A program made the translations under genes and the position numbers. This document shows, piece by piece, positions 1,802 through 42,057 of a stretch of 64,000 nt of DNA (within the stretch, counting starts at the first letter, position 1; every line of letters starts with the position of its first letter). The stretch is taken from the NCBI GenBank assembly GCA_965601665.1, contig OZ271833.1, positions 562,205 to 626,204 of the forward strand. Direction: 5' to 3'. The notes under the pieces were generated by a model that saw only the letters and a program-made list of their open reading frames with translations, made no database searches and was not told the DNA's origin. This DNA comes from Gammaproteobacteria bacterium. GTDB taxonomy: Bacteria > Pseudomonadota > Gammaproteobacteria > Eutrophobiales > Eutrophobiaceae.

Positions 1802-1834
1802 AGTTCTCCTGTTAAGTCTAAATAAATACGATTG

Positions 1835-3409: not shown

Positions 3410-3468
3410 TTTACTATCCTCAATTTACGTGAAATCGTGCCGCGCAGAGTACTGCGCGGCACTAAGGG

Positions 3469-4014: not shown

Positions 4015-4146
4015 TTCATTTCTCCGGTTAGGTTGATTTAAGGGTCACTCCAAAAATAGGTAGCAACTGGAGGAGAGTATGGTCTGTTCCGTTTTAGAAA
4101 AGAATAAGCTAATATTGGAATTAACTATTCCAAAAAAAGGAATAAT

Positions 4147-5082: not shown

Positions 5083-5090
5083 AATAGAGC

Positions 5091-5753
5091 ATGGAAATGG
5101 ACCTCTTACCACTATTTAGTAGCGCTTTTTCTATATTAATACCGTTCTTTATTGTCTTTGTTTTATTCACTGCTCTTGGAGCATATTTCCGCAGCTCATC
5201 ATTCAAGGGAAAACTCGGTGAGTCATTCGTGAATAATTTTGCGAAAGCGATGCTGGATAAGAAAACCTACTATTTGTTACAGAATGTGACGTTAAAAGAT
5301 GGTGGTGGAACAACACAGATTGATCATATTATCGTGTCAAAATATGGCGTATTTGTTATTGAGACCAAAACTATGAAAGGCTGGATCTTTGGCGAAGAGC
5401 AGCACAAAACCTGGACTCAAGTGCTCTTTAAAGATAAGTACACATTCCAGAACCCATTAAGGCAGAACTACAAGCATGTCAAAGCCGTTCAGGATTTATT
5501 GAAAATTAATGATGATCAGATTCATTCTGTTGTTGCATTCATGGGAGAGAGCACCTTTAAAACTGCCATGCCCGATAACGTGACGCAAGGATTGGATTAT
5601 ATAGACTATATCAAGTCAAAGAAGAAACCTGTGTTAACCGGGGAAGAGGTTGAAATAATAAAAATCAAGCTGGAGTCATACCGGCTAGAGAATTCTCGAC
5701 AAACGGATAAGGCACATATTGAACACGTTAAACGTTTACATGATAAAAGCTGA
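5091..5753 (+). CDS. NERD (nuclease-related domain) protein with an N-terminal transmembrane anchor
   Basis: The NERD core signature is IDHIIVSKYGVFVIETKTMKG…KTW…NP. A hydrophobic helix lies at residues about 8–32. The gene appears more AT-rich than its neighbours. Confidence 0.65.
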   Translation: MEMDLLPLFSSAFSILIPFFIVFVLFTALGAYFRSSSFKGKLGESFVNNFAKAMLDKKTYYLLQNVTLKDGGGTTQIDHIIVSKYGVFVIETKTMKGWIFGEEQHKTWTQVLFKDKYTFQNPLRQNYKHVKAVQDLLKINDDQIHSVVAFMGESTFKTAMPDNVTQGLDYIDYIKSKKKPVLTGEEVEIIKIKLESYRLENSRQTDKAHIEHVKRLHDKS

Positions 5754-5789
5754 ATTTATAACGATTTGTAATTTTATCATTAGCCCGGT

Positions 5790-7001: not shown

Positions 7002-7008
7002 TGCATCG

Positions 7009-9378: not shown

Positions 9379-10100
9379 TGCAGCTCGCTTGCCTTGAGTT
9401 TGTGCTCATTGACCTGCTCCCTGATGACATGACCATCGCTCATCTCGATAACCCGGTCGGCCATATCGGCGATAACAGCATTATGGGTAATCACAACAGT
9501 GGTTGTGCCCAGTTCGCGGTTGGCACGGGCGATGACTTCCAGCACGGTTACGCCGGTCTGGCTGTCCAATGCACCAGTTGGTTCATCACATAACAACACA
9601 TCGGGTCGTTTGGCGATAGCGCGGGCAACGGCGACGCGTTGCTGTTCGCCCCCGGAAAGCTGGGCAGGAAAGTGGTTCAGTCGATCGCCAAGGCCTACCA
9701 GTGTCAACGCCTCTGCAGGTGACATAGGGTTCCTGGCGATCTCCGTTACCAGGGCGACGTTTTCGCGTGCAGTGAGGCTTGCAATCAGGTTGTAAAACTG
9801 AAAAATAAATCCGACATGATCACAACGATAGCGGGTGAGGGCCCTGTCATCGTATTCACTGAGATCGTGATCGAGATACCTTACTTCACCGCTGGTAGGT
9901 ACATCCAGGCCGCCAAGTATGTTTAGCAGGGTCGATTTGCCACTGCCCGAAGGACCCAGCAGCACGACGAGTTCTCCACTGTACAGCGCAAGATCAACAC
10001 CGCGCAAGGCATGCACTTCCACCTCGCCCATCTGGTATGTCTTGGTGATGTCTCGTGCCTGAAAAACACATTTCATTTGCGATTGCGCAGTGGCGGACAC
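9372..10100 (-). CDS. ABC transporter ATP-binding protein (YbbA/LolD/MacB-NBD-like)
   Basis: Walker [15 protein letters not shown], the ABC signature [14 protein letters not shown] and Walker [12 protein letters not shown] are all present. Confidence 0.9.
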
Positions 10101-10437
10101 GATTTGCTCCTTGCCGGGGATTAATGAAATAAATGATATACACCGGCCAGTTATTCAATTTTGATCCCTATCAACAGAATAGCAGGTATTTTTAGGTGAA
10201 ATAGACCGCAATACATGGCAATCATTTAATTTGTAACGCGATACTTCAAATGAGCCGGGTGCTTGAACAATTACGCAGAAATATATTGGCGTGTATTGGT
10301 TAGGCTTGTGTGAAGATATTTCTAAATCCCAGGTCATAGGCTGATGAAAGTCATCCATGGCTTTCACCCTGCCATCGGCTGGCCACCTCAAGACATCTTT
10401 TCCTTTCAACAGATACGTATCAACAAACCCGTCGGAA

Positions 10438-12603: not shown

Positions 12604-13064
12604 GACTTACCTCCTTTCAGCGCTGCGGCTTTTTTTATAGCCGCCTGGATTTGCAGGTAAGTGCCACATCGACAGAGGTTAGTAATACCGTTCTTTATTT
12701 CTTCGTCAGTGGGTGTTGGATTGTTTTCCAGGAAAGCGGCGGCGGCCATGATTTGTCCTGACTGACAATAACCACACTGCGGCACATCAGACTCAGCCCA
12801 GGCCTTTTGTACCGGGTGTGGTTTTTCAGGCGTACCAAGACCTTCTATCGTTGTGATTGCCTTGCCCTTGGCCATGGAGACCGGCGTGATGCAGGAACGC
12901 ATGACGTTACCATCGACATGTATTGAGCAGGCCCCGCAGAGTCCCATGCCGCAGCCAAACTTTGTGCCGGTATAACCAATGACATCGCGAATCACCCAGA
13001 GCAGGGGCATGTCGTCTTCAACATCCACCTCGAGTTTTTTTCCATTTACGTTTAATGTCATCAT
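12600..13064 (-). CDS. (2Fe-2S)-binding small subunit of the molybdo-hydroxylase
   Basis: It has two 2Fe-2S clusters: the plant-type CGMGLCGACSIHV and a second C…C cluster (CGYCQSG…CRCG). It overlaps the large-subunit gene by an ATGA. Confidence 0.85.
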   Translation of the reverse strand: MMTLNVNGKKLEVDVEDDMPLLWVIRDVIGYTGTKFGCGMGLCGACSIHVDGNVMRSCITPVSMAKGKAITTIEGLGTPEKPHPVQKAWAESDVPQCGYCQSGQIMAAAAFLENNPTPTDEEIKNGITNLCRCGTYLQIQAAIKKAAALKGGKS

Positions 13065-13094
13065 GTCATTTACCTCGATTCATTGAATTAAATG

Positions 13095-14786
13095 CTAGGC
13101 TGAAATCGCCATAAAGTTGCGGTACTCCGCATCGGTATCCAGATCGATAGCGGCTTCAGGTATCGATACGGTTTTTACCTTTGTCTTGTCTTTAAAAAAG
13201 TGTTTTGCACCTTGGTCACCATGTAGTCGCATCAGCAACTCGAAATCGATATCAGGAAAAATGGCAGGTACACCGATGGACGACTCGTAATGACTGGCCA
13301 CGCGATAACCAGGTTCATGCCTCCATGCAGAGACAAGCTTCTCAAGCGCATGGCTGGTGATTAACGGCTGGTCTGCAAGGACAACCATGGCAGCCGTAGC
13401 GGATTCTGGCAATGAACTGATGCCCGTACGGATAGAGCTTGCCAGACCTTCACTCCAGTCAGGGTTATAAACAATGTGTTGTTCATAACCGTTTAGTGCC
13501 TGTCGTATTGCTTTGTCATTTGCGCCCAGGATTATTTTGAACCTGTCCTGGAAGACCTGTTGCAGTTGTTCACAGGTATGCAGGATAAGTGGTTTGCCAC
13601 GAAACTCGAGTAGCTGTTTGGGCTGGCCCATACGGCTGGAATCGCCTGCGGCAAGCAATATCGCATGGCATTGACCACGTTCCACGTTTGCATGAACCTG
13701 GACAGGACGATCATCCAGCATGCCACCAGTTCGGCCTGCGCACACGGCCTGTATCTCGGCCAGGATCGATAACGCAATTTCATCCGGTGTTTTTGAGCCG
13801 ATGTCCAGTCCGACTGGTCCGTGACTTCTATTTCTAACTGATGCCGCCAGGTCCCCTATGGCATTATATATCTGGTCACGACGGTGCGCAGGGCCAAGTA
13901 AACCAATGTACGGTATCGTTGAATGTGCCAACTCTTTAACGTAACGAATATCGTAATCAATGCTATGCGTCATCAACACCATGGCATCGTAGCGATGTAA
14001 CGGCAGGTCGCTGCTGATACTCTCGGGTCTGACTTTGACCAGTTGCACGTGTTCCGGGAAACGTGATCGAACAAGGTAGGCTGGCCGATGATCGGCAACA
14101 GTGATGTCCCAACGTAATTGCGTCGCCATGTTGACCAGCGGGATCGCATCGGGTCCCGCACCAAGCAGTAACAGGTGTTTGGCTGGCAAAATCCGTTCAC
14201 AATAAAATGTCACCGATGATCCTTCGACAGAGGCGGTGTCATAAATGATTCGTTGCTGTGTGATTCTGTCGGCAAAAAGATTGATTAATTCAACAAGAGC
14301 CCGGTTTTCATGCTGAAACCGGATAGCCGGGTTCCAGGTCACGGTGGTACCCGCAGGCAAACCATCGTGCTCGCTATCGATAACAGAACAAAGCATGAGT
14401 GCTTCGCCCGCTGCAGCTGCATCAGCTAACTCGGAAATCGGTGTATAGCCGGCGTTTTTATCCAGGGATTGCAGAAAAATACGAACGGCACCATTACAGC
14501 CAAGTCCCAGCCCCCAGATAACATCGTCTGGCGAACGCATATCGTAAAACAGTGTTTTTGATTTGCCGGTCTTGAAGACCTCGCCGGCCTGTTCAATAAG
14601 GTCACCCTCAAAACAGCCACCGGCAAGAATGCCGCTGTAGGATTTATTTGAGGACACAATCATACGCGCCCCCGCCTTTTGATAACTCGAACCCGTGGTT
14701 TCGATGATGGTGGCAAGAACAGTTTTTTCGCCTAGTTGACTTTGTTGATTACAAAAGCGAACGAAGTCACTGAATATACTGGACAT
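13095..14786 (-). CDS. XdhC/CoxI-family maturation factor fused to a MocA-like molybdenum-cofactor cytidylyltransferase
   Basis: The N-terminus has the XdhC_CoxI and XdhC Rossmann domains (LLLLGAGPDAIPLV). The C-terminus has the nucleotidyltransferase motif AILLAAGDSSRMGQPKQLL, as in MobA/MocA. Confidence 0.7.
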   Translation of the reverse strand: MSSIFSDFVRFCNQQSQLGEKTVLATIIETTGSSYQKAGARMIVSSNKSYSGILAGGCFEGDLIEQAGEVFKTGKSKTLFYDMRSPDDVIWGLGLGCNGAVRIFLQSLDKNAGYTPISELADAAAAGEALMLCSVIDSEHDGLPAGTTVTWNPAIRFQHENRALVELINLFADRITQQRIIYDTASVEGSSVTFYCERILPAKHLLLLGAGPDAIPLVNMATQLRWDITVADHRPAYLVRSRFPEHVQLVKVRPESISSDLPLHRYDAMVLMTHSIDYDIRYVKELAHSTIPYIGLLGPAHRRDQIYNAIGDLAASVRNRSHGPVGLDIGSKTPDEIALSILAEIQAVCAGRTGGMLDDRPVQVHANVERGQCHAILLAAGDSSRMGQPKQLLEFRGKPLILHTCEQLQQVFQDRFKIILGANDKAIRQALNGYEQHIVYNPDWSEGLASSIRTGISSLPESATAAMVVLADQPLITSHALEKLVSAWRHEPGYRVASHYESSIGVPAIFPDIDFELLMRLHGDQGAKHFFKDKTKVKTVSIPEAAIDLDTDAEYRNFMAISA

Positions 14787-25784: not shown

Positions 25785-26693
25785 TTAACCGTCTGACCCC
25801 AATACCCGTTTACTTCTTAACTGAAAATCTTGTAGTAACTCGTTGACTAATTCATTTGGGAAGTGGCTTTTCACCGTGACCGCATAAAAGTTTTCAAATA
25901 CATTCGGTATCGTCATGTAGTGTACAAGCTTGCCGCTAAGCAGTTCATCTTTAACGACCACGTCCGGCATCACTGACAGTGCTCCGCTATCGCGCGCAAG
26001 CAACCGCAGCATCGGCATGTCATCGGCTTCGGCGGCAATGTCAGGACGGAACTGGTACTGGGCGCAAAAACCATCAAACGCCGAGCGGATGGGCGTATCA
26101 GTAACAGGCAGTACCCAGCGTTGACTGACATAGCGCTGATTGAATCGTTTACCAAGTTTCAGACCTGGTGGACCAATGACCGATACCGGTTGCCGTCCCA
26201 GTAACTGGCAACGCCATAGCTGCTGTTCACTCCCCAATACTTCTATATTGGTGAGCGCCATATCGAACTGGTGATTGGATAAATCATTGAGCAGGTTACC
26301 CTGGCGTCGCGCATGCAGGCTGTAGGTGATATCGCTACGCCTAATCAGTGGCTCGATGAAACTCTCGATAAAATTTCGAGACATTGTTGATAAGGTGCCG
26401 ATGCGAAGTGTCTGCTTTTGGGGCGTAATCCCTTTGGTCAGCAATAATTCCAGTTCTTCACCTTTGGCAAATATCTCTTCCGCGTATAACAGCGTCCTTT
26501 TGCCGGATTCCGTTAATACCAGTTTTCTGCCCTCACGGGAGAACAAGTCAACGTCCATGGTCGATTCTAACTGCTTGATTTGACTGGAAAGAGCTGACTG
26601 CGATACGTGCAGGCTTTTTGCCGTTTCGGTCAGGTTTCCAGTCCTGGCAACGTGCCAGAAGTAGTACAGATGATGATAATTCAGTTTGGCCAT
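25785..26693 (-). CDS. LysR-family regulator, NhaR-like
   Basis: The N-terminus (LNYHHLYYFWHVARTGNLTETAKSL) closely resembles E. coli NhaR (INYNHLYYFWHV…). It is divergent from the dabB/dabA operon. Confidence 0.8.
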   Translation of the reverse strand: MAKLNYHHLYYFWHVARTGNLTETAKSLHVSQSALSSQIKQLESTMDVDLFSREGRKLVLTESGKRTLLYAEEIFAKGEELELLLTKGITPQKQTLRIGTLSTMSRNFIESFIEPLIRRSDITYSLHARRQGNLLNDLSNHQFDMALTNIEVLGSEQQLWRCQLLGRQPVSVIGPPGLKLGKRFNQRYVSQRWVLPVTDTPIRSAFDGFCAQYQFRPDIAAEADDMPMLRLLARDSGALSVMPDVVVKDELLSGKLVHYMTIPNVFENFYAVTVKSHFPNELVNELLQDFQLRSKRVLGSDG

Positions 26694-26790
26694 AGTTCTT
26701 TATTATAGAACGATTTGTTAAATATTATATATTTTACTTAAGTTTTGTCGCCGCTAAAATTCTCATCGTCAAAAATTATCTGGAGATGTA

Positions 26791-28341
26791 GTGATGAACA
26801 CTATGAATTTTACCGGGCTACTTTGGCCCATGCTGTTGAGCTTGCCAGTCCTGGCAATAGTATTCAGTAGTAGCCAACGGCGTTGGCAAATTGCCCAGTT
26901 TTTCATGGGGACGAACCTGTTGTTGGCCGTGGCGGCCTGGATTCAGGCTGTATTTTTTGCCTCCGCGCCACTGGCATCCAGCCTGATACATTTAACTGCA
27001 CTGGACACGACCGTGCTGGTACTGATCAGCTTTATCGGCCTGGTGGTATTACGTTATGCCAAAAACAACCTTGAAGGCGATCAGGACGATGCCCGTTTCC
27101 TGAAATGGTATATCGCAACGGTACTGGCAGTTATCGTTACTGTTACCACCAACCACCTTGCTGTCTTCTGGTTAAGCTGGACGGCTATCAGCCTGGCACT
27201 ACACCAGTTACTGATGTTTTATCCGGACCGACCACGTGCCATTCTTGCGGCACACAAAAAATTCCTTTTTGCACGAGTTTCTGAAGCGTTGTTGGCCGTT
27301 GCTTTCTTCCTGCTTTACCAGCAACATGGCTCACTGATCATCAGTGAAGTCATTAATGAGATCAGCGCAGCAACTACGCTTAGCCTACAACATCAGATAG
27401 CTGCTGTATTGCTGGGCGCCGTCGCTTTAATTAAGTGTGCGCAACTACCGCTACATGGCTGGTTAATCCAGGTAGTTGAAGCGCCTACTCCTGTTTCTGC
27501 GTTGTTGCACGCAGGCATTATTAACCTGGGTGGTTTCCTGTTGTTGCTGTTTTCACCGCTTTTCGGACAGGTCGCTGCAGCACAATGGCTGGTTTTGATT
27601 GTTGCCGGACTATCAACATTGATAGCGGCACTGGTCATGATGACCCGAATCAGTATTAAAGTACGTCTTGCCTGGTCAACTACCTCGCAGATGGGTTTGA
27701 TGCTGATTGAGTGCGGACTAGGTCTATATGAACTGGCTCTGTTGCACTTGCTCGCGCACTCCTGCTACAAGGCTTACGCCTTCCTGAGCTCAGGTAACGC
27801 AGTTAATGACTTTCTGCGCCAGGCCTATGTGAAGGTATCACTTCCTTCATTTGCAAACTGGTCCTTGGCGATTTCTGCTTCTGTTGCGATTGTTGTAGCA
27901 AGCATCTATCTGACAGGTGCTGCAGTTCCTGCCAGTCCATGGATACTTGTGACCATTGCATTGAGCAGCCTGCTAGCATTCCGTTTTCAACATACGCACA
28001 AGATTTCGTTCATGCGTTCATTGTTTACAGGTGCTGGTGTGGTCGCTTTTTACCTATTAATGAAAACAGTTATGCCACTGTTGTTACCCGAGGTTAACGT
28101 CAGCTACAGCTGGATGGCAGATGCATGGATAAGCGCTGTATTTATTAGCTTGATGACAGGCTACCTGTACCTGCAATATCAGACCCGGAGTCAATTATCT
28201 CGCAAGTTATTCATTGCACTAAACGCAGGATTTTATCTTGATGAGTGGGCTACGCGTACCACGCTGAAGTTATGGCCAATAAGCGTACCGCGCTCGACCA
28301 ATAAACACATGGCTATCCCATCGGAGGTGATTTATGAGTAG
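26791..28341 (+). CDS. dabB: DabB/MpsA-type NuoL/MnhA-like proton-conducting membrane subunit
   Basis: 516 aa with about 13 TM helices. It carries the PF00361 signature KCAQLPLHGWL…APTPVSALLHAGIINLGGFLLL (compare NuoL [34 protein letters not shown]). Its stop overlaps the start of the DUF2309 gene. Confidence 0.65.
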   Translation: MMNTMNFTGLLWPMLLSLPVLAIVFSSSQRRWQIAQFFMGTNLLLAVAAWIQAVFFASAPLASSLIHLTALDTTVLVLISFIGLVVLRYAKNNLEGDQDDARFLKWYIATVLAVIVTVTTNHLAVFWLSWTAISLALHQLLMFYPDRPRAILAAHKKFLFARVSEALLAVAFFLLYQQHGSLIISEVINEISAATTLSLQHQIAAVLLGAVALIKCAQLPLHGWLIQVVEAPTPVSALLHAGIINLGGFLLLLFSPLFGQVAAAQWLVLIVAGLSTLIAALVMMTRISIKVRLAWSTTSQMGLMLIECGLGLYELALLHLLAHSCYKAYAFLSSGNAVNDFLRQAYVKVSLPSFANWSLAISASVAIVVASIYLTGAAVPASPWILVTIALSSLLAFRFQHTHKISFMRSLFTGAGVVAFYLLMKTVMPLLLPEVNVSYSWMADAWISAVFISLMTGYLYLQYQTRSQLSRKLFIALNAGFYLDEWATRTTLKLWPISVPRSTNKHMAIPSEVIYE

Positions 28342-30763
28342 CACAGCTTCAAATTTAGAAACGACGCAGTCAGATATCGCCACTGCCGTTGCCAGCGCGT
28401 GCGCACGTGTCGCGCCAACCTGGCCATTAGACCAGGCGATTGCGGTCAATCCCTGGTGGGAGATGCGACAGACCCCGATGGCAGAGATTGCCGCTAAAGT
28501 TGAAACACTGGGTCAGGTGCAGTGCCTGATGCCGAAGAGTTACTACAGTTCTCTCTGGCAGAAGCAGATTCAGAGCGAACATCTGCAGGAAGCAGCAAAG
28601 TTGCTCGGTGTTGAGGTAACTGAAGACGAACTGGTGGCATTCCTTGCTGATGAAAGCACAGAAACACATCACTGGCACAATTTTAATGACTTGCTCGATT
28701 CACAACCTGAGCGTGTCAAGAAGATGCCATGGCGCGATGAAATCGTGCAGCAGATTAGTCAGTTTTGTGGTTTGTGTTTTGAATATCCTGGACGTGTAGA
28801 TTCAACTGCTGTCAATGGCTGCGGTCTGTATGAAGCATGGTTGGAAGTTGTACAGCAAGACCGCGGTATCGAGGTGCTGATGGGCGAGGATCTGCAGCAA
28901 TACTTCAAGGCATTGCCGGGTTCACCCGCGCAATTGTTTTCAGAGGTCTTTGCTGGCATGGGTAAACCGGAAAACTTTAGCGAATATGCGTACGCACTGT
29001 TGCTGGATATTCACGGCTGGGCTTCCTGGATGGCGTACACTGCGTGGCAGGATGCTTTTAATGAAAAGGATAACAATCTTGTCGAGCAGCTACTGGCCAT
29101 GCGCATGGCATGGGAATGGGTGCTCTGGCAACACACGCAGAATTCACAAGCGGCCATGTTTAAACTGCTGGAAAAACAGTTTCTCCGTCAGTTTGAACAG
29201 TGCGATTTTTATGAGCACTTGCACCTTGCCAAGCAGGAATACCTGTGGGTATGGCAGCGCGCGATGGAGTTGTCTTACCAACAGCCGCTGAACAAGATGC
29301 TGATGTCGCAACAGTCAAAGCAGGCCCCAGAGTCGAAGCCGGCATTGCAGGCGGCTTTCTGTATTGATGTACGTTCAGAGCCAATGCGACGTGCGTTGGA
29401 GTCGCAGTCTGACGATATTCAAACTATTGGTTTTGCCGGATTCTTCGGCTTGCCGATTGAATATTCTCCGGCTGAAAGTGATTACACGCGTCCGCAATTA
29501 CCAGGTTTGTTACCAGCAGCAATTAAGGTTCAACCTGCGGGTTTGAGTGGTGATGCGAGCGACACCAGTAAAGAGATTTATCGTTCAAACAGCGATCAAA
29601 ACTCTATTGAGGCCGCGCCTTCGACATTTGGCCTGGTTGAAATGACAGGGCTGTTCAAGTCATTCAAGCTGATTAAAGACAGTTTTTCACCTAGCAAGCC
29701 ATCGCATGGCATCAACGACATTGAAGCGGTAGGTAAATGGGAACTGTTGCAGGATGGCAAGCAGGTTAGTTCCGAAGAGCTGATCAACCTGGCAAAAGGC
29801 ATACTCGGTGCCATGGGGCTGACGAAAAACTTTGCCCCACGTGTATTGTTACTCGGCCATGGAAGTTGCACTGCCAACAACCCGCAGGCCGCTGGTCTTG
29901 ATTGCGGTGCCTGTGGCGGTCAGACCGGTGAAGTAAACGTTAAGGTCCTTTCCCAGATACTTAATGATAAGGACGTACGTGACGGCTTGAAACAAGCCGG
30001 TATTGATGTGCCTGCTGACACCCGCTTTATCGGTGGTCTGCATAGCACAACCACGGATGACATCATTCTTTACGGACGATTAGGTAAAGAAGGCTGGCAG
30101 CAATGGCTCAAGGATGCCACAACAATGGCGCAAAAGAACCGTGCTGAAAGCGTTGGTGTCAATCCGGAAAAAGACGTAGCTGAACAGTTTGAACAGCGTT
30201 CCAGGGACTGGTCACAAATTCGTCCGGAATGGGCGCTGGCAAATAACGCCGCGTTTATCGTTTCGCCTCGATACCTGACCAGGGATCTGAACCTTGAAGG
30301 TCGCACCTTCCTGCATGATTACAACTGGCAGGAAGATGAAGGCTATGGTGTGCTGGAACTCATTATGACAGCGCCCATGATCGTGACTAACTGGATCAAC
30401 CTGCAGTATTACGCGTCGGTGACGGACAACCTTAAGTATGGTTCCGGTAACAAGATGTTGCATAACGTGGTTGCTGACCATATCGGTGTCTTCGAAGGTA
30501 ATGCCGGTGACCTGCGTATCGGGTTGGCCATGCAGTCCCTGCATGACGGCAAGGAATGGCGCCACCAGCCAAACAGGTTGAGCGTTTATATTGCCGCGCC
30601 AACTGAGGCAATGTCGGACATCATTAATCGTCATGAGCATGTTGCCGACCTGTTGAACAAGGACTGGTTATACCTTTATCAACTCGACAACGATAACGGT
30701 GGTATCAAACAATACGTTAAGGGAGAATGGAAGCAGGTTTCTGAAGAAGGCTTCACTGCATGA
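28334..30763 (+). CDS. dabA: DabA/MpsB-type DUF2309 (UPF0753) protein, putative CO2-hydrating subunit
   Basis: It is a soluble 809-aa protein encoded immediately after, and overlapping, the NuoL-like membrane gene. It has conserved Cys/His/Asp positions (…[21 protein letters not shown]…) as expected for the zinc site. This pairing is the MpsAB/DabAB arrangement. Confidence 0.6.
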
Positions 30764-31683
30764 CAACTACCCTGACGCATTTGCGTACGCTCGAAGCGGA
30801 GGCCATCCACATTATTCGTGAGGTGGCCGCCAGCTTCGACAATCCTTGCCTGTTTTACTCAATTGGTAAGGACTCAACCGTGATGTTACACCTGGCCAGG
30901 AAAGCATTCTGGCCAGGCACGGTGCCTTTTACCCTGCTGCACATTGATACCACGTGGGAATTTGGTGAGATGGGCCGCTTCAGGGATCGTATCGTTGATA
31001 AACATGGTTTGCGCTTATCGGTCTATATTAACGAGGAGGCGTTGGCCGCTGGAATTCATCCGATTGAATCCGGGTCGGTAAAATATAACGATATGATGAA
31101 GACCCAGGCATTAAAACAGGCGATGGCCATGCATCAATTTGATGCTGCGCTGGGCGGGGCGAGGCGTGATGAAGAAAAGTCGCGGGCCAAGGAACGTATC
31201 TTTTCCATTCGCGACAAGCACCAGGGCTGGGACCCCAAGCAACAGCGCCCCGAACTCTGGAATCTTTATAATGCCAACATCAACAAGGGTGAATCAGTCA
31301 GGGTTTTTCCCCTATCCAACTGGACCGAACTCGATATCTGGCAGTATATCCTGTTGGAAAAGATCGAGATTGTGCCACTGTATCTGTCTGCACCAAGGCT
31401 GAGCTGGATTTGTGATGAAAGCCAGCAGGTGTTTGCCATGGACGACGAACGTATGATGCCTTATCTCAGTGAAACAGAGAAACAATCGCTGGAGATGCGT
31501 AATATCCGTTTCCGAACCCTGGGCTGTTATCCGCAAACCGGGGGTGTAATGAGTGAAGCTGACAGCGTTGGCGATATCGTGCAGGAACTGCTGGTGGCCA
31601 GAACCAGCGAGCGGGAAGGGCGCATGCTGGACAAAGACCAGGTTGGGTCCATGGAAATCAAGAAACGCGAGGGTTATTTTTAG
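30760..31683 (+). CDS. cysD: sulfate adenylyltransferase subunit 2 (CysD), with no adjacent CysN
   Basis: It is near-colinear with E. coli CysD ([20 protein letters not shown]…[18 protein letters not shown]…[18 protein letters not shown]…[15 protein letters not shown]…RFRTLGC…[11 protein letters not shown]). Its ATG overlaps the dabA stop in an ATGA arrangement. Confidence 0.9.
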
Positions 31684-31689
31684 CCATCA

Positions 31690-33836
31690 TTAATCAAGGT
31701 CAAAAGACAGCTCCGCCAGGAAACTGCGGTCGCTCAATGGAAAATCGCCACTGTAGACGCCGAACATATTGAAAGCGGAAGGGTAGCGTGCATCATTGTT
31801 AAACGCGTTCTTGACCAGTATGGCAGCATTAAAGTTATTTATAATTTTTCGTTTTTCCAGCTTCAAATCAACCAGCGTATCGTTCGCAATGTCATTGCGT
31901 GTATCGTTCGTCGCCCTGTTACGATTGGCAATGTAATTCGCCTGTACATACGCAAACCAACCCGGGGCAGGATTCCAGTCAGCAGCGACAAACGCATCGA
32001 GATGAGGTACATCAACTACTTTCTTGTCTGTTGCCTGATCATTGGTCATTATCCATGCAATGTTACCTGAAAGGTTAAGGCTATTAATGGGCTGCCATGT
32101 CATTTCATATTCAAGCCCATAGGCTTCCTGTTCGCGTGCATTTTCGGCCATAAAGACCCCGGCGCCATCAGGCACGAACTCGATCAGGTCATCGGCATAA
32201 TAATAGAAAAAATTGGCGCCATAGCTCATTCGAGTTGATGGGGTGAACGTCATACCAAATTCAACGGTGTCAATTTTTTCCGGATCTAGATCCGGATTGC
32301 CCAAAGATACCGGGTTATTGGTTGTGAATTGATCAGTTGTCGTTGGTGGTCGAAATGCACTGCTATAAAGGAGTTTAAGTGTCAGTGCGTTGGTGGTATT
32401 CCAGAGTAGCGCCACTCTCGGATTTATCGTGCTGCCAAAGTCCGAGTAATCGTCAATACGTATACCTGTAGTCAGGTTCCAGCGTTGGCTGATATCCCAT
32501 TCATCCTGCAGTGACAGGCTGTAAATATGCCGGTTGTTGTCTCTAAACCAGACAAATGGCGTTTCCGTCGTAACTGTAGATACCGTGGGCGTGACGCCTG
32601 GACCAAAGTTTTTGATTTCATAGGAATTTGATTCTTCGTACTGATAGCGAGTAGACAAACGTATGCGATGGTCTTCCAGACCGGTATAGATCCCGGTGAA
32701 TTCAAACGATGGTTTTAACATTAGTCTGCCAGGAGATCCCTGTACGCCATCAGGAAAGTTGACTGGCACTGCACCGGGGCCGGGGCCTAAATTACCTGAA
32801 GGTTGTACCAGTAAGGTAGCATCTGCTGGAAACAATGTTGTCTCCACCGGTTCATCCGTGTAGTTGAAGCTTGCCCGGAAGTTCAGGTTCCAGTCACCCA
32901 GGTCATCGAGCGTATTGTATTGGAGATCCGACAGGATATTTGTGGTTTCAATATTGCCGGTTGGATCCAAAGCGTTGGCAAAGCCTCCACCTGTGCCCTG
33001 GTTTGGTTTATCGTTAAGCCAGAAATTGATATCCCAATGATTTTTTTTAAATGACAGGTGCAAATCGATAACCTCGTAATCGGTGTTTAGCCTGCCAGGT
33101 GACAGAGATGCGGAGGTGTTGAAGATACCATCCAAGACACTTTGCTGGTCAGATGGTACAACTCGGTCGCCATCACCTTTTGTCGTCTGGTATTCACCGG
33201 TCAGCGCGATTTCCCAGCCTGAATAGAGACCGCCATGGTTGGCCCAAGCGTGATAGGTGTTGCTCGTTCCTGCACGCGTTCCGAACGTGGTACCATCAAT
33301 GTCGTTGCCATCTTTCGTTACGATGTTAACCACACCACCAAATGCATCGGCACCATAAACTGCTGAGCCTGGCCCGCGTATGACCTCGACACGTTTGATA
33401 TTATTTACAGTTTTTAGAAATTGCGAAACCGGTGAACCCTTGAAAGGGGTGTGGATAGTCAAGCCATCAAGCAGGAACAGTACCTGGTTATTACGCTGGT
33501 TTTGCAAGCCACGCACAGTCACTTTTTTTCAAAAACCTGATTTCCTGTGCTGATATGAAAACCTGGAACCCGCTCCAGTACTTCATAAAGATCGATAGCT
33601 CCCATCCGACGTATTTGTTCGGCAGTGATAATGGTCGCTACGGCAGGTAATGTCTCCCTGGTACGCGTGGTTCCTGTGGCCACGGTTATCTCGGCAAGCT
33701 CATCCAGGTCGAGGCTTAATAAGCGCTCTAATTCATAGTCAGTTTCTCTGGCGGCAGTGTTTGCGCAAGAGAGTAACAAAAGAGGTATCGCTATGGTATG
33801 TGTGTACCTGTTTAGCCTGGCCTTGACGTTATTCAC
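31690..33836 (-). pseudogene. TonB-dependent receptor interrupted by a 1-nt frameshift in an A7 homopolymer
   Basis: The N-terminal signal peptide and plug region (33519–33836) end in …NQVFEKK*. The plug continues in another frame as (KK)VTVRGLQN…VLFLLDG (31690–33522). The junction is gaaaaaaag (T7 on the + strand at 33523–33529). A run of A8 or A5 would restore one ORF. The C-terminus has a β-barrel ending …ELSFDLD. Confidence 0.7.
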
Positions 33837-34131: not shown

Positions 34132-35145
34132 TTGATGACTGCTAAATCTGTTCTTTTGGCAGATGATGACCAGACGACGCTTACTGTCCTGACTGCGACA
34201 CTTGAAGATTATGGCTACCGTGTTGATAGCACGGATCGTGGCGAGAAATGTTTATTCAAGGCCATGGAGCAGGATTACGATGCGTTTCTCATTGACCTGA
34301 ATATGCCAGGTTTGGGTGGAGTGGAGCTGTGTAAAAAATTACGCGCCCTGGAACAGTACAAACTCACTCCCATTATTATCATCACGTCCATGGACGAGGA
34401 AACCAACCTCGGCGAGGTATTATCCGCGGGCGCCAGCGACTTTATTTCCAAACCGGTCAATCCCGTGGTACTGAATGCGCGTTTAAAAAACCACCTGGAA
34501 AAGCAAGAGTACTATGATGAACTGGAGCGCATCCGCCGTTATCTGAATCGTTATATTTCATCCCGAACGCAACGCATGGTGGAGGCCTACGCAACGACAG
34601 GGCTGGTGCCTGAACCAGAACTCCATCATGTTTGCGTGATGTTTACTGACATCCGTGGTTTTACCCGCTTAAGCACCAAAATTGATCTGCAGGAATTATT
34701 TGCCAGAATCAGTTATAGCCTCGGTCAACAGGTAGACCTCGTTTACAAATATCACGGCTATATCGACAAGTTCGGTGGTGATGGGCTAATGGCCATCTTT
34801 GATGGTGAATTGGCAGTCAGCAACGCCTGTGAATGCGCCCGACAAATAATCGATCAAGCCACCAGGCATCCCGATCCCTTGCCTATCGGTATAGGACTTC
34901 ATTACGGTCCCGTGTTGATTGGTAATATTGGTTCCAACGAACATCTGGACTACTCGGCGCTGGGCGAAACAGTCAATCTGGCGTCGAGGATATGTAACTA
35001 TGCCGATGCAATGCAAATAAGAGCAAGTGAAACAATTATAGAACAATTAAGTGATGATAACAGCATACGACATACCGATGTAGAGTATGCCACCCTACGA
35101 GGTTACGAGGAGCAGATACCCATATACCGTTTTCATTTTGACTGA
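34132..35145 (+). CDS. response-regulator receiver domain fused to a class III adenylate/guanylate cyclase
   Basis: The REC domain has an LLADDD acidic pocket and the phospho-acceptor region FLIDLNMPG. The cyclase (CHD) domain has VMFTDIRGFT…KFGGDGLMAIF. Confidence 0.8.
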   Translation: MMTAKSVLLADDDQTTLTVLTATLEDYGYRVDSTDRGEKCLFKAMEQDYDAFLIDLNMPGLGGVELCKKLRALEQYKLTPIIIITSMDEETNLGEVLSAGASDFISKPVNPVVLNARLKNHLEKQEYYDELERIRRYLNRYISSRTQRMVEAYATTGLVPEPELHHVCVMFTDIRGFTRLSTKIDLQELFARISYSLGQQVDLVYKYHGYIDKFGGDGLMAIFDGELAVSNACECARQIIDQATRHPDPLPIGIGLHYGPVLIGNIGSNEHLDYSALGETVNLASRICNYADAMQIRASETIIEQLSDDNSIRHTDVEYATLRGYEEQIPIYRFHFD

Positions 35146-35213
35146 AATATTTGCCGTTTGTCACTTTCTGACATTATACTTTATGAAATTATAATAATTA
35201 AAAAGGCAAAATC

Positions 35214-37061
35214 TTGAGATCCAAGTATACTATTCTCTTCAGTAGTATCCTTATCATTACTTTGCTGTCCTCATTCGTAGCGGCAGAAGCAAAACCACTC
35301 ATCCTTACCGACAATAGCAACAAGTATTCACTTCTCAAGGAAGCAGAATATTACGAAGACCAGAGTGGACAACTGGATATTGAAGCTATTCTTCAACGTC
35401 ATGCAAATGGTGAATTTGTCAGACCAGAAGAATTTATAAACTCACCTGGTTTTACGGATTCTGCTTACTGGTTTCGAATCAGCATATTTAATGACCGTTC
35501 AGCGGTTGATGCATGGTTGTTACAACTAACATATGCCATGCTCGATCACATCGACGTCTATTTGCTCGATAATTCAGGCCAGATAAAGCATGAGCACATG
35601 GGCGATGCCCAGCCTTTTAGTCAAAGGCAGATAGAACATCGTACATTTTTGTTTGATATGGCACTGCCAAAAAGAGAGATAGTCGAACTCCTGGTGCGGA
35701 TAAAAACAACCAGCTCCATGCAGCCTAAAATGTATTTGTGGGAAGCAACCACGTTCAACCATGATAACCAGGGTAATCAACTGGCATTTGGTATTTACTA
35801 CGGTGTTTTCCTCGCCATGCTCTTCTATAACCTGCTGGTGTACATATCTATTCGAGACAAGATTTACCTGTTTTATGTCGCCTATGTGCTTTCATTCAGC
35901 TTGTTTATGTGCTGCCTCAATGGATTGGGTTATCAGTACATCTGGCCTGATTTCCCCGGTTGGCAATCGCATGCCAGTGCGACACTGATGTCAGTTGCCT
36001 GTTTTAGTGCAATTCTTTTTGCCCGCACACTGTTGCGTTTGAAAGACTATTTGCCGCGCTGGGATAAATTCTTTCAGTGGTCGATGTACTATTTTACTTT
36101 GCTTGCTATAGCATCATTGTATCTTCCATATACCTATGTCGCCCAGATTTGTACGGCGAGTAGTCTGCTGTTATCTATTTTACTGAATTTTATTGGCTGG
36201 TTAAGCCTGAAGCATGAGAACCAGGTTGCCCGGTTTTACGTATTGGCATGGACTTTTTTTCTACTTGGCGCCAGCGTCTATGCTCTGAAAACCTATGGCG
36301 TGTTACCGCAGATCTTTATTACCGAATATGCCATGCAAATAGGCTCAATGCTGGACGTGGTTTTGCTATCAATGGTGCTGAGCTATCGAGTCAAGATGCT
36401 GCAGGAACAAAATGTTAAAATTCAGCTACAGGCTACGATAGAACTTGAAAGCAAAGTGCAGGAAAGAACCAGGAAGCTGAATGAAACGCTTGATGCCCTG
36501 TCTGAAAGCTACGCGAAAGTTGAAAAGCTAAATTACAGTGATCCATTAACAGACATCAAGAATCGGCGTTTTTTTGACGAGTTCTATTTACACGAAATGA
36601 AGAACGCGATTCGTAGTAAAGGGTCTATCGCAGTTATGGTTGCCGATATTGATCATTTTAAGCAGGTTAATGATGAATACGGCCATAATGCCGGCGACAA
36701 GGTGCTTATTTGTATAGGTCAATTGATCAAGGAAAATCTGCCTCGTGAGAATGATTTTGTAGCCCGTTATGGTGGCGATGAATTTGTGATTGTATTGCCG
36801 TTTACCGACAAGGAAGGTGCGCTGTTAATCGCTAAACGTATTAAAAACAGTATCTCTGAGCTTCAGGTGGAACATGAAAATCGCAACATTATGACAACGA
36901 TTAGCATTGGCATTTCGGCCATGCAACCGTCGTATGAAACCGACACCTACCGGTTAATTACCGAAGCTGATCGTGCCCTGTATGAGGCAAAAGAACTGGG
37001 AAGAGATCGGATCCGTTGCTACCATAATGGTGATGTCGAATTAAAGAGCGTCGACAGCTGA
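35214..37061 (+). CDS. 7TMR-DISM sensor diguanylate cyclase (GGDEF)
   Basis: It has a signal peptide and a periplasmic 7TMR-DISMED2-like domain, then 7 TM helices, a coiled coil and a GGDEF domain with RYGGDEF and an I-site-like RxxD. Confidence 0.8.
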   Translation: MRSKYTILFSSILIITLLSSFVAAEAKPLILTDNSNKYSLLKEAEYYEDQSGQLDIEAILQRHANGEFVRPEEFINSPGFTDSAYWFRISIFNDRSAVDAWLLQLTYAMLDHIDVYLLDNSGQIKHEHMGDAQPFSQRQIEHRTFLFDMALPKREIVELLVRIKTTSSMQPKMYLWEATTFNHDNQGNQLAFGIYYGVFLAMLFYNLLVYISIRDKIYLFYVAYVLSFSLFMCCLNGLGYQYIWPDFPGWQSHASATLMSVACFSAILFARTLLRLKDYLPRWDKFFQWSMYYFTLLAIASLYLPYTYVAQICTASSLLLSILLNFIGWLSLKHENQVARFYVLAWTFFLLGASVYALKTYGVLPQIFITEYAMQIGSMLDVVLLSMVLSYRVKMLQEQNVKIQLQATIELESKVQERTRKLNETLDALSESYAKVEKLNYSDPLTDIKNRRFFDEFYLHEMKNAIRSKGSIAVMVADIDHFKQVNDEYGHNAGDKVLICIGQLIKENLPRENDFVARYGGDEFVIVLPFTDKEGALLIAKRIKNSISELQVEHENRNIMTTISIGISAMQPSYETDTYRLITEADRALYEAKELGRDRIRCYHNGDVELKSVDS

Positions 37062-39820: not shown

Positions 39821-40807
39821 TCAGGGAACAACCCAAAGTGAATCCACGAAGCGTTCTTCGTCATCAACGAAGTGCCGTACTACCTCAAATCCTGCATCTT
39901 CAGCCATTTGTTCGATGTCTTCTTCGAGATATTTGAATGAATATTCCAGGTGGATAGGTTCAGCCTTATCAAAGTCAAAGTACTGATCCAGTGCTTCAAT
40001 AAAAACACGTTGTCGTTTCCTGGAAATAAGAAAGCTCTCCATTGCGCCCAGTCTCGGATTATAGGCGCCGTAATGTTCAAACTGTTCAAGATCGAACTGC
40101 CCGCCAAGCTCACGATTTATCCGTGCCAACAGGTTTAGATTGAATAAACGGGTATAGCCAGCACTGTCGTTGTAGGCCCGGTTTAAAGTTGAAATGTCTT
40201 TTTTCAAGTCAAAACCAATTAGGGCATGGTCGCCAGGTTTCAGTATGCCATGCAGTTTTGCCAGGAATCGTTGGCTTTGTAATGGATTGAAGTTGCCAAT
40301 GTTAGAGCCAAGAAACAGCACCAGCTGTGTATTGCCAGAGTGCTGTCGCACATGGCTCAAGCCGGCAAAGTAGTCGGCGATCACACCATGAATCGTTAGT
40401 AGTTCATGTTGGCCAAGCGTTTCTGCAAGTTGGTCCATGGCCTTTGCAGAAATATCGATCGGGTAGAGGTTTATCCTGGAATTGCGTGTCAGGAAACCGT
40501 CAAGGAGCAGTTCAGTCTTGTGTCCATCGCCGACGCCAAGTTCGATAATATCAATGACATCGGCATTGATGCTGGCAGCCAGATCGCTGCTTATGGTTTC
40601 AAGGATACTGTACTCGGCACGGGTCAGATAGTAATCCTCGTGTGCGGTAATTTTCTGAAACAGGATACTGCCCTTGTCGTCGTAGAAGTATTGTGCGGGT
40701 ATTTGCCTCGGCCTTGCCTGTAGTCCTTGTAGTACATCCCGGGCAAACTGGCTCTCGGTGATTGACTGGTTAGCATCCTGTTGTGCGATCAGGTTTTCAA
40801 TTTTCAT
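39821..40807 (-). CDS. egtD: L-histidine N-alpha-methyltransferase EgtD (ergothioneine biosynthesis)
   Basis: It shows the EgtD family signature …IPAQYFYDDKGSILFQKITAHEDYYLTRAEYSILE…, the SAM motif IIELGVGDGHKT, and the C-terminal DUF2260/EgtD fold. Confidence 0.85.
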   Translation of the reverse strand: MKIENLIAQQDANQSITESQFARDVLQGLQARPRQIPAQYFYDDKGSILFQKITAHEDYYLTRAEYSILETISSDLAASINADVIDIIELGVGDGHKTELLLDGFLTRNSRINLYPIDISAKAMDQLAETLGQHELLTIHGVIADYFAGLSHVRQHSGNTQLVLFLGSNIGNFNPLQSQRFLAKLHGILKPGDHALIGFDLKKDISTLNRAYNDSAGYTRLFNLNLLARINRELGGQFDLEQFEHYGAYNPRLGAMESFLISRKRQRVFIEALDQYFDFDKAEPIHLEYSFKYLEEDIEQMAEDAGFEVVRHFVDDEERFVDSLWVVP

Positions 40808-42057
40808 TTGCTGTCCCTTGCCAGGCGGATGCCGGAAAACATCCAGCGCTGATGTGGTTCATAAAAGTTTCGGTAGCTATGGCGCAAGTGCCCCTCGGGT
40901 GTCGCTATACAACCCCCGCGCAATACAAACTGGTTACACATGAATTTACCGTTGTACTCATGCAGGGGTCCTGCAAAGGTCTTGAATCCGGGGTAAGGGG
41001 AATAATGACTTGCTGTCCAGCACCATAATTGATTCCCTGCATTGCCATTATAGGGTTGTAATGCCAGCGGCCTGGATTGTTCTGTTGCAATCTTGCCTAG
41101 TTGCAATGCCACCTCGTATTCCTGTTCGGTTGGTAATCGAGCGTGCGCCCAGGCAGCAAAGGCACTGGCTTCAAAATAGCTCATGTGACAAACGGGCGCA
41201 TTCATATCCAATGGCCGCAAGCCATGTAATGTAAATTCATACCAGCTGCCATCTTTCTGGAACCAGTAGAGCGGGGACGTAATACCGTGCTCCCTGATAA
41301 AGTCGTAACCCTTGCTTAACCAGTAAGCGGGTTTGTCGTAACCACTGTTTTCCATGAACGCAAGGTATTCAGCGTTACTAACAAGTCCCTGCCTGATATG
41401 ACAATCGTGCAGGTAGATCTTATGCCGGGGTTGTTCATTATCGTAGGCAAAGCTATTGCCTTCACTGTGCCCAATCTCATAGAGGCCCTCGGTAAGCGGC
41501 ACCCAGTCCTGATTCGGGGCAGGACTGGCGGGAAGGGGTTGGCTGGCATAACAGGGCGCAATCGGATTGATACCTAATATGTATTTAATGTCCATGTACA
41601 GGAGTTCCTGGTGCTGCTGCTCGTGATGCAGGCCTAATTCAATCAATTTCAGGGCCTCGTTATCCAGGTTGCCTGATTGCAACAGTGCCAACACAGCAGC
41701 ATCAACCTGACTCCTGTAAGCAAGCACCTCATCAACAGTAGGGCGGGATAGTTGGCCTCGTTCAGCCTGTATCCAGTGTTTGCCTGCCCCCTTGTAGTAT
41801 GAGTTGAACAACTCGGTATAGCCCGCATTCATGCGCTGGTAGCCCTCTACCTGGTTCGCAAGAAGCATTTCCTCGAAAAACCAGGTCGTATGACCAAGAT
41901 GCCATTTTGGCGGGCTTACCTCGGGACAGGGCTGAATCGTATAGTCTTCGATTGCCAATGGCTGGCAGATTGCAACTGAATGATCGCGCACTTGTTGAAA
42001 GCGCGATGATAGTCGTCGGGAAATAACAGGTTCCGCAGTTGGAGATGGTTTAACCAT
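40804..42057 (-). CDS. egtB: ergothioneine biosynthesis sulfoxide synthase EgtB (DinB_2 + FGE-sulfatase domains)
   Basis: The N-terminal DinB_2 domain has an iron-binding His motif (WHLGHTTWFFEE). The C-terminus is an FGE-sulfatase/C-type-lectin-like domain. It overlaps egtD by an ATGA. Confidence 0.85.
   Translation of the reverse strand: MVKPSPTAEPVISRRLSSRFQQVRDHSVAICQPLAIEDYTIQPCPEVSPPKWHLGHTTWFFEEMLLANQVEGYQRMNAGYTELFNSYYKGAGKHWIQAERGQLSRPTVDEVLAYRSQVDAAVLALLQSGNLDNEALKLIELGLHHEQQHQELLYMDIKYILGINPIAPCYASQPLPASPAPNQDWVPLTEGLYEIGHSEGNSFAYDNEQPRHKIYLHDCHIRQGLVSNAEYLAFMENSGYDKPAYWLSKGYDFIREHGITSPLYWFQKDGSWYEFTLHGLRPLDMNAPVCHMSYFEASAFAAWAHARLPTEQEYEVALQLGKIATEQSRPLALQPYNGNAGNQLWCWTASHYSPYPGFKTFAGPLHEYNGKFMCNQFVLRGGCIATPEGHLRHSYRNFYEPHQRWMFSGIRLARDSK

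Follow-up and report, generated by a model that had tools for sequence, protein, structure and literature searches.

The dabB-dabA-cysD locus

The window, which is the whole 64-kb stretch of DNA analyzed here, carries a sulfate-activation gene, cysD, as the terminal gene of an operon that begins with two inorganic-carbon-uptake genes, dabB and dabA. A LysR-family protein with Pfam HTH_1 and LysR_substrate domains (25785-26693, minus strand) is encoded divergently and is the presumed regulator of the operon. It scores below the cut-offs of both of its nearest named families, NhaR and CynR (top NCBIfam match NhaR, 104 bits versus 219), and shares 63-84% identity with the LysR proteins that occupy the equivalent place in L001, L005, Cellvibrio, Deefgea and L175. 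The palindrome GTTC-N9-GAAC (GTTCTTTATTATAGAAC, 26695-26711), a LysR-type T-N11-A box, is a candidate operator given its conservation in all eight aligned LysR-operon intergenic regions, including those of Cellvibrio, Deefgea, a TARA contig and L175. At L175, dabBA is absent and cysD directly follows the candidate operator region. Alignment also reveals a conserved TATTTTAC box (26730-26760, plus strand) that is invariant or almost so across these intergenic regions and overlaps a promoter-like site (TTTACT, 16 nt, TAAAAT) 5' of dabB. The promoter-like site matches 9 of 12 consensus positions, and such matches are no commoner in the region than in shuffled sequence.

The dabB gene (26791-28341, plus strand) starts with GTG, preceded by GGAG 6 nt upstream, and encodes a NuoL/Mrp-like membrane protein that serves as the cation-translocating subunit of the DAB CO2-hydrating pump (PF00361; NF006029, 527 bits, cut-off 380). 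It overlaps dabA (28334-30763, plus strand) by 8 nt. The dabA product is the β-carbonic-anhydrase-like cytosolic subunit of DAB and matches PF10070 (769.7 bits) along the full profile, positions 1-747 of 747. DabA residues C343, D345, H509 and C524 (C-x-D...H-x14-C) are invariant in 10 DabA sequences and are spaced like the essential C351, D353, H524 and C539 of Halothiobacillus neapolitanus DabA2. The family scores, the predicted zinc site and the adjoining DabB identify the pair as DAB pump genes. Both the overlapping-ORF core of PF00361 DabB and PF10070 DabA and the zinc-site residues C-x-D...H...C are shared with the DAB and MpsAB systems of H. neapolitanus and of the heterotrophs V. cholerae, B. 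anthracis and S. aureus. The host of the window operon appears to be a heterotroph, and the subset of window ORFs that was scanned included no recognized Rubisco or carboxysome gene. What DAB does in heterotrophs is understood only in loose terms, as supplying carboxylases with bicarbonate.

Described DAB operons consist of dabA and dabB, plus dabC in DAB1. The window operon differs from them in adding a third, translationally coupled gene for a sulfate-activation enzyme, and in its relatives a DUF6671 gene often comes next. The TGA stop codon of dabA overlaps the ATG of cysD in an ATGA arrangement (30760-30763, plus strand), a Shine-Dalgarno-like AGAAGG lies 10-15 nt upstream of the cysD start, and a weak internal promoter-like match (9/12) precedes cysD at 30684-30713.

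CysD is the small catalytic subunit of an ATP sulfurylase that is coupled to a GTPase and converts ATP and sulfate into adenosine 5'-phosphosulfate (APS), and CysN is its textbook partner. On sequence grounds, the ORF at 30760-31683 (plus strand; ATG start, 307 amino acids) is a genuine, intact cysD that encodes this PP-loop subunit of sulfate adenylyltransferase. Its product matches Pfam PAPS_reduct (E = 1.5e-50), exceeds the cut-offs of NCBIfam TIGR02039 (448.8 bits versus 396.6) and of the NF009214 equivalog (433.5 bits versus 413, profile positions 1-294 of 294), and is colinear with E. coli CysD at 61% identity. Residues 2-307 align with residues 22-325 of the solved P. syringae CysD (1ZUN_A, E = 7e-130), and the PP-loop SIGKDS (residues 34-39) is intact. 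The fold, the PP-loop and the full-length colinear sequence are thus common to the window CysD and the E. coli CysDNC and P. syringae 1ZUN proteins. The initial annotation had recognized the gene and its ATGA coupling to dabA correctly from the letters, and only the 5' end of its span (30700-31700) was about 60 nt too generous. It had also not seen the linkage described; we know of no DAB operon reported with cysD, and our literature searches found no paper in which CysD or sulfate adenylyltransferase is linked to DabA, DabB or MpsAB.

The CysD subfamily and its lack of a neighboring cysN

The window cysD does not have the canonical cysDN(C) layout, in which cysN directly follows. Unlike the CysD of the CysDN ATP sulfurylases (E. 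coli cysDNC; the P. syringae CysD-CysN complex), it has no adjoining cysN and closes a dabBA operon to which it is coupled through dabA. Five CysN queries (E. coli and four from acidobacterial or other non-gammaproteobacterial cysDN loci) gave no tblastn match in the 64-kb window. In a neighbor-joining tree that largely tracks bacterial families, the window protein falls, apart from E. coli and P. syringae CysD, within one subfamily clade with a stem of 0.136. The flanks examined, up to 10 kb a side, lack cysN in all 24 loci of this subfamily with readable flanks, whereas cysN lies within about 1 kb downstream in 141 of 141 informative loci outside the clade. The window and the examined flanks of all DAB-linked loci yielded no cysN, cysC or cysH.

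The subfamily is marked by the fixed differences V30C, L32F, S40T, K67E, HT109-110YN, a two-residue insertion (LSW), E234P, L259Q and I290L, among which K67E reverses a charge in the DTxWKF motif. A single fixed change, S15A, sets the cysN-unlinked members apart. The subfamily tolerates variation at G83, L86, Q156 and P206, positions that cysN-linked CysDs conserve, and 112 of the 307 aligned positions are invariant in both groups. By tree and signature, the window CysD belongs to a distinct subfamily whose cysN is usually unlinked. The subfamily ranges over Cellvibrionaceae, Alteromonadaceae and Marinobacteraceae and also occurs in Chitinibacteraceae, where it probably arrived through gene transfer. 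As judged from gene order, its cysD typically sits within a LysR-controlled inorganic-carbon-uptake operon, often with a DUF6671 gene next. DUF6671, an uncharacterized ITPase-fold, zinc-ribbon protein, is a recurrent partner that is specifically associated with this CysD subfamily, and its fold resembles nucleotide pyrophosphatases.

Recurrence of the linkage and the downstream receptor

The LysR/dabB-dabA-cysD arrangement is found in at least 11 distinct lineages of Cellvibrionaceae, Alteromonadaceae, Marinobacteraceae, Chitinibacteraceae and uncultured gammaproteobacteria, and thus spans four families and two classes. The dabBA-cysD loci are the window, L001-5, L009, L010, L012, L014, L086-88, L090, L092 and L094. 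Junctions are tight or overlapping, and the dabA-cysD junction ranges from a small overlap to a 14-nt gap in L001, L005, L009, L010, L012, L014, L086-88, L090 and L094. Across the loci, DabA identity falls to 38-39% and CysD identity stays at 70% or above; the pairwise identities of the two proteins correlate (Spearman 0.70), and both proteins give the same groupings. In Deefgea piscis, the module is flanked by two identical IS66 gene sets, an arrangement which suggests that this betaproteobacterium acquired the whole block between the IS66 copies. At L007, L008, L089 and L175, dabBA is absent while cysD persists. Because the arrangement recurs across several bacterial families, dabB-dabA-cysD is a conserved linkage rather than a one-off rearrangement, and the recurrence of dabA-cysD in many independent genomes rules out chance adjacency.

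A convergent TonB-dependent receptor gene (31690-33836, minus strand) marks the operon boundary and lies outside the module, with 6 nt between the cysD stop and the receptor end. A frameshift at an A7 run near 33520 breaks the receptor into two minus-strand ORFs, 31690-33522 and 33519-33836. As a result, its Plug and β-barrel domains are spread over both ORFs, and the Plug domain itself is cut in two. The initial annotation was right about the broken receptor and about the cysN missing downstream of cysD; the adjacency unique to this strain that its own refutation called for is not what the lineages show. It had also raised a rearrangement scar; in that reading, the strain-specific event that brought in the disrupted receptor would have broken a cysDN operon. 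The 6-nt abutment of the two stop codons is suggestive of such a scar. However, L176 and L177, whose CysDs are 97-98% identical to that of the window, have dabA-cysD with no receptor between cysD and a response-regulator/cyclase gene, and they still have no cysN. The scar reading is refuted because dabB-dabA-cysD recurs, likewise without cysN, in at least 11 lineages and because the receptor is missing from the closest strains; with the LysR operator kept and only the receptor strain-specific, we give it a negligible chance.

Readings of the linkage

What is the function of CysD in an inorganic-carbon-uptake operon? Its subfamily signature residues are shared with CysDs that adjoin a genuine CysN, and for this reason the window CysD is most likely a conventional ATP-sulfurylase subunit that is co-expressed with inorganic-carbon uptake, with its CysN presumed to be encoded elsewhere in the genome, a reading that we hold with slightly better than even confidence. 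The evidence comes from a methanotroph group (Methylococcaceae, L172-L174), whose CysDs are 75% identical to the window CysD, carry all of C30, F32, T40, E67, Y109, N110, LSW, P234, Q259 and L290, and have a DUF6671 gene nearby. Unlike the window gene, the methanotroph cysD lies directly upstream of a gene for a genuine 541-residue CysN (709 bits, cut-off 590; 57% identity to E. coli CysN); moreover, the neighboring transporter is SulP with PEP carboxylase instead of DAB, and the LysR, of NhaR type, shares only 27% identity with the window LysR. Methylomonas montana pairs an E. coli-type CysD with a CysN that is 82% identical to the methanotroph-group CysN, and the two CysD types therefore appear interchangeable next to a methanotroph-type CysN. 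A search with the sister-clade methanotroph CysN as query returned Methylococcaceae matches only.

In the conventional reading, the conserved operator and promoter, shared with the divergent LysR, would control dabB-dabA-cysD, and ribosomes that end dabA would re-initiate on the overlapping cysD start, so that CysD would be made whenever the DAB pump is made. CysD would then adenylylate sulfate together with a CysN from elsewhere in the genome, and the linkage would be a form of co-expression that ties sulfate activation to a low-CO2/bicarbonate-supply regulon. If this cysD were the sole copy and the operon CO2-responsive, sulfate assimilation would depend on DAB expression, a dependence that would be odd unless an internal promoter exists. 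Also counting against the conventional reading are the lack of cysN, cysC and cysH in the window and around the DAB-linked loci, neighbors that recall bicarbonate rather than sulfur, and the relaxed G83, L86, Q156 and P206. Of the DAB-tied role suggested for CysD at the outset, the part that stands is a conserved genomic and regulatory linkage. The suggested energy or AMP chemistry finds no support, given that the CysN-adjoining methanotroph CysDs share the signature and that cysD persists without dabBA.

The subfamily CysD might instead work without CysN in an inorganic-carbon function, by adenylating another anion, by acting as a bicarbonate-uptake partner (possibly with DUF6671) or by docking to DabA. 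The contrast between 0 of 24 subfamily loci and 141 of 141 loci elsewhere points this way, as do the movement of the module without cysN between IS66 copies, the DUF6671 association with its pyrophosphatase-like fold and the K67E reversal. The subfamily is also linked to three unrelated putative inorganic-carbon transporter families, namely DAB, SbtA-like (Sbt_1) with a CbbR-like LysR, and SulP with PEP carboxylase, and the bicarbonate-using enzymes Sua5/TsaC, PurEK, CarAB and BioD recur nearby. However, CysDs directly upstream of a genuine CysN carry every signature residue including E67, the window CysD exceeds the CysD equivalog cut-offs, and cysD stands alone or without DAB at L007, L008, L089 and L175. 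Moreover, SulP and TauE would equally fit sulfate transport, and the bicarbonate-using neighbors are housekeeping genes whose proximity may be incidental. We thus regard a CysN-free role as unlikely. We are equally doubtful that cysD landed once 3' of dabA in an ancestor and has been kept by vertical descent as a neutral hitchhiker. Such an accident would account for a CysD tree that mostly follows families, for the DabA/CysD distance correlation that a single ancient event would predict, for the loss of the association at the four loci without dabBA and for the absence of a known biochemical rationale. It is harder to reconcile with a junction that stays tight or overlapping despite the divergence of DabA, with the apparent block transfer into a betaproteobacterium, with the independent placement of the same subfamily after an SbtA-like transporter that has another, CbbR-like LysR, and with a candidate LysR operator that is still ahead of cysD, and would drive it, where dabBA is gone.

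The conserved, apparently mobile operon joins the DAB pump and CysD under one LysR operator and offers a concrete link, open to testing, between sulfur activation and low-CO2 responses in common marine and soil Gammaproteobacteria (Cellvibrio, Paraglaciecola and Marinobacter relatives, among others). Under the automated label 'CysD', a distinct subfamily goes unnoticed that has a gene context of its own and a recurrent partner, DUF6671. If the enzyme is conventional, the result is a modest one of regulation and genome organization; if it is CysN-independent, the finding adds something new to inorganic-carbon physiology. We entertain, as more speculative still, that the 'CysD' subfamily, often with DUF6671, may be a dedicated CysN-free accessory of bicarbonate uptake through DAB, SbtA-like or SulP transporters that activates another anion or couples adenylate chemistry to inorganic-carbon supply, which would give heterotrophs a previously unrecognized component of inorganic-carbon acquisition.

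The gene order at L006 and L093, in which a CbbR-like LysR is followed by an Sbt_1 (SbtA-like) transporter and then cysD, may be likened to sbtA-sbtB operons, where a bicarbonate transporter is followed by a small cytosolic nucleotide-binding regulator. Both place a cytosolic nucleotide-binding protein after the transporter, but at L006 and L093 this protein is a full-length CysD and not a PII-like SbtB, with no sign of a regulatory role. In keeping with conventional chemistry, a TauE/TSUP permease follows cysD at L006, and TauE/TSUP-looking membrane proteins, assessed by eye from N-terminal sequences, follow cysDN-cysH at two acidobacterial loci.

The dabB-dabA-cysD operon of the window

The plus-strand gene at 30760-31683 encodes a 307-aa CysD. 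The protein matches the Pfam family PAPS_reduct (E = 1.5e-50) and the solved P. syringae CysD (1ZUN_A; E = 7e-130), and scores 448.8 bits against the NCBIfam CysD profile TIGR02039 (curated cut-off 396.6) and 433.5 bits against the equivalog NF009214 (cut-off 413), with the entire profile covered. Because it exceeds the curated cut-offs and is colinear with and 61% identical to E. coli CysD, the identity proposed in the initial annotation holds. Upstream of cysD lie dabB (26791-28341; PF00361; NF006029, 527 bits versus 380) and dabA (28334-30763; PF10070, 769.7 bits, full length), which encode the DAB CO2-hydrating pump and share 8 nt. At the next junction, the ATGA at 30760-30763 contains both the stop codon of dabA and the start codon of cysD, exactly as the initial annotation had described. 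C343, D345, H509 and C524 of DabA are invariant across ten homologues, and their spacing equals that of C351, D353, H524 and C539, the essential residues of H. neapolitanus DabA2 (bioRxiv 10.1101/476713). The usual GTPase partner of CysD had been reported as missing downstream, and tblastn with five CysN queries indeed finds no cysN in the 64-kb window. Base composition is even along the operon and gives no sign of a recent island.

A LysR regulator gene (25785-26693) diverges from dabB. The intergenic region contains a conserved GTTC-N9-GAAC palindrome (26695-26711) and a conserved TATTTTAC box at 26730-26737, with a promoter-like site overlapping the box. The LysR proteins of the DAB-linked modules and of L175, a related locus that lacks dabBA, are 63-84% identical. 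In L175, the LysR gene and operator are followed directly by cysD-DUF6671-sua5, and both the palindrome and the TATTTTAC box precede cysD as the first gene; therefore, cysD belongs to the presumed LysR regulon with or without dabBA. An internal cysD promoter was considered and not adopted: the candidate matches the consensus at only 9 of 12 positions, and shuffled sequence contains matches of this kind at least as often as the region does. An Rfam scan of the window matches only three tRNAs and reveals neither a riboswitch nor a leader in the vicinity of the operon.

A convergent TonB-dependent receptor gene terminates six bases past cysD. It is split into two minus-strand ORFs (31690-33836) by a frameshift near 33519-33530 at a GAAAAAAAG (A7) run, and is either a pseudogene or the product of a homopolymer sequencing error. 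The initial annotation had correctly recognized this broken receptor and had raised the possibility that the junction is a rearrangement scar. In two loci whose CysDs are 97-98% identical to that of the window (L176 and L177), the same junction occurs without a TonB receptor at the corresponding position, and a response-regulator/cyclase gene, whose window counterpart begins at 34132, directly follows cysD. The broken receptor is therefore a strain-specific insertion, and the junction upstream of it is older and conserved. Since dabB-dabA-cysD also recurs in at least 11 lineages, a rearrangement scar is ruled out. The response regulator encoded at 34132-37061 (plus strand) is fused to an adenylate/guanylate cyclase domain, and the next gene in this interval encodes a 7TMR-DISM sensor that carries a diguanylate cyclase (GGDEF) domain.

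Recurrence of the module and a distinct CysD subfamily

Sequences closely related to the window CysD were gathered from protein, genome and metagenome collections, and their contexts were read and scanned by tblastn. The dabA-cysD adjacency pointed out in the initial annotation recurs in at least 11 lineages. The arrangement of a LysR gene with dabB-dabA-cysD is found in two lineages from Logan metagenomes (90% identity to the window CysD), metagenome contig L092 (86%), MAG GCA_028279365 (84%), the betaproteobacterium Deefgea piscis (76%), a Pseudomonadales MAG (75%), three Cellvibrio fontiphilus assemblies (74%), a Thalassocella MAG, a Marinobacteraceae isolate and a TARA contig (72% each) and a Paraglaciecola MAG (71%). 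The dabA-cysD junction is tight in every case: the two genes either overlap slightly or lie at most 14 nt apart. Identity to the window proteins falls to 39% for DabA and never below 70% for CysD; the pairwise identities of the two proteins are correlated (Spearman 0.70), and their groupings agree. In D. piscis (CP081149), identical IS66-family gene sets (1517-3874 and 12062-14419; 530-, 113- and 110-aa products) flank a five-gene unit, LysR-dabB-dabA-cysD-DUF6671, which looks like a composite transposon that brought the module into this betaproteobacterium. The DAB-linked cysD of the Paraglaciecola MAG (locus L014, 10001-10817) seems frameshifted, with the match split at about residue 248, reflecting either a pseudogene or a MAG assembly error.

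A neighbour-joining tree was built from 269 non-identical CysDs. One clade with a stem of 0.136 takes in all the listed close protein matches that passed a length filter, together with the related loci that gave an extractable cysD ORF, which excludes the frameshifted L014. The CysDs of E. coli and P. syringae fall outside this clade, as do those of alphaproteobacteria and acidobacteria. Outside the clade, cysN lies within about 1 kb in all 141 loci with enough downstream sequence; within the clade, a small basal group aside, no cysN occurs in any of 24 loci (approximately 19 lineages) with flanks of up to 10 kb a side. The position of the E. coli and P. syringae proteins suggests, as an unproven reading, that window-type cysD may be a paralogue that accompanies a canonical cysDN. 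DAB linkage accounts for at least 11 lineages of the clade, and cysD occurs without such partners in Alteromonas flava, an Alteromonadaceae chromosome and Marinobacter salinisoli. In one further lineage (L006, 3779-7787, equivalent to L093), a CbbR-like LysR gene diverges from an operon that encodes an Sbt_1 (SbtA-family) transporter, then CysD and lastly a TauE/TSUP permease; here window-type cysD is linked to an inorganic-carbon transporter of another type, unrelated to DAB.

A literature search yielded no paper that pairs DabA, DabB or MpsAB with CysD, sulfate adenylyltransferase, sulfurylase or PAPS reductase, in agreement with the initial annotation, which had regarded the linkage as undescribed. 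In structural and genetic papers on DAB, the only subunits described are DabA, DabB and, for DAB1, DabC. The dabBA-cysD feature is real; its components are known, and what is undescribed is a conserved operon architecture with a recognisable CysD subfamily.

Enzyme type and the link to inorganic carbon

Is the CysD of this subfamily a conventional enzyme subunit? Its invariant substitutions (V30C, L32F, S40T, K67E, HT109-110YN, an LSW insertion, E234P, L259Q and I290L) were considered as marks of a new function or specificity, and this idea was dropped because all of them also occur in a cysN-linked methanotroph group. This basal group of the clade (protein match P0044 and loci L172-174) carries each substitution, and in L172-174 a genuine CysN is encoded directly downstream of cysD (NF003478, 709 bits versus 590; 57% identity to E. 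coli CysN), with Methylomonas and Methylobacter CysNs as its nearest kin. The sister-clade CysN query gives at least 120 matches; the matches listed are Methylococcaceae or unnamed sequences with at least 78% identity to the query, and none was matched to a genome with a cysN-unlinked cysD. In Methylomonas montana (L178, 8589-11626), a CysN that is 82% identical to that of L173 is instead partnered by an E. coli-type CysD (76% identity to the E. coli protein, 61% to the window CysD). Beside the same kind of CysN, one type of CysD has apparently replaced the other, and the basal group and M. montana together thus indicate that window-type CysD can adjoin an ordinary CysN. The L173 locus (1742-12568) also encodes an NhaR-type LysR, PEP carboxylase, SulP, DUF6671, an FwdA/FhcA-like amidohydrolase and, besides the window-type CysD and its CysN, BioD.

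Only one fixed change, S15A, sets the cysN-unlinked members apart; positions G83, L86, Q156 and P206 are relaxed in these members. Overall conservation is 0.81 in the subfamily versus 0.80 in cysN-linked CysDs. On these sequence comparisons, the simplest reading is that the window CysD would be a conventional subunit of ATP sulfurylase, encoded by a relocated gene, with a presumed CysN encoded elsewhere in the genome. A carbon-linked role of CysD that is independent of CysN would fit the 24 loci without cysN, and the sharing of the substitutions with cysN-linked proteins speaks for the conventional subunit; we consider such a role unlikely.

Three unrelated transporter types, namely DAB, SbtA-like and SulP with PEP carboxylase, stand beside members of the subfamily, the neighbouring regulators are CbbR-like or closest to NhaR and CynR, and the bicarbonate-using enzymes Sua5/TsaC, PurEK, CarAB and BioD are encoded nearby. 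From these neighbours we infer a bicarbonate flavour, which may be partly incidental, these enzymes being encoded by housekeeping genes; SulP and TauE could transport sulfate as well. We propose, with somewhat better than even confidence, that the linkage would serve to co-express sulfate activation with an inorganic-carbon-uptake regulon. A historical, neutral linkage, which the members without dabBA would favour and the recurrence of the tight junction would disfavour, appears improbable. The sua5/tsaC product is threonylcarbamoyl-AMP synthase, which uses bicarbonate and ATP. Its gene lies directly 3' of cysD or cysD-DUF6671 in Alteromonadaceae and Cellvibrionaceae loci (L011, L014, L086-88, L094 and L175), and carAB comes next in Cellvibrio.

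DUF6671 and other genes of the window

DUF6671 is encoded 3' of cysD in many relatives and is missing from the window. At least 13 listed DUF6671 matches agree in the length of their longest contig with a listed CysD match, and therefore very probably share contigs with these CysDs. The family is small: of the candidates scored, 399 proteins reach E <= 1e-5, and those of them with organism names are all from Gammaproteobacteria. The AlphaFold model is confident (pLDDT 90.8), four CxxC pairs lie at the C-terminus, and the literature searched contains no mention of the family. DUF6671 would be the likeliest place to look for any special function of the subfamily.

Elsewhere in the window, minus-strand genes at 39821-42057 encode an EgtD-like histidine methyltransferase (PF10017) and an EgtB-like protein (DinB_2 plus FGE-sulfatase), which look like an ergothioneine-biosynthesis pair and are syntenic in the relative L005. 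A molybdenum hydroxylase cluster (10438-14786, minus strand) comprises a MoCoBD large subunit, a 2Fe-2S subunit and an unusual 563-aa protein in which an XdhC maturation factor is fused to a MobA-like nucleotidyltransferase; in L005, these two are encoded by separate genes.
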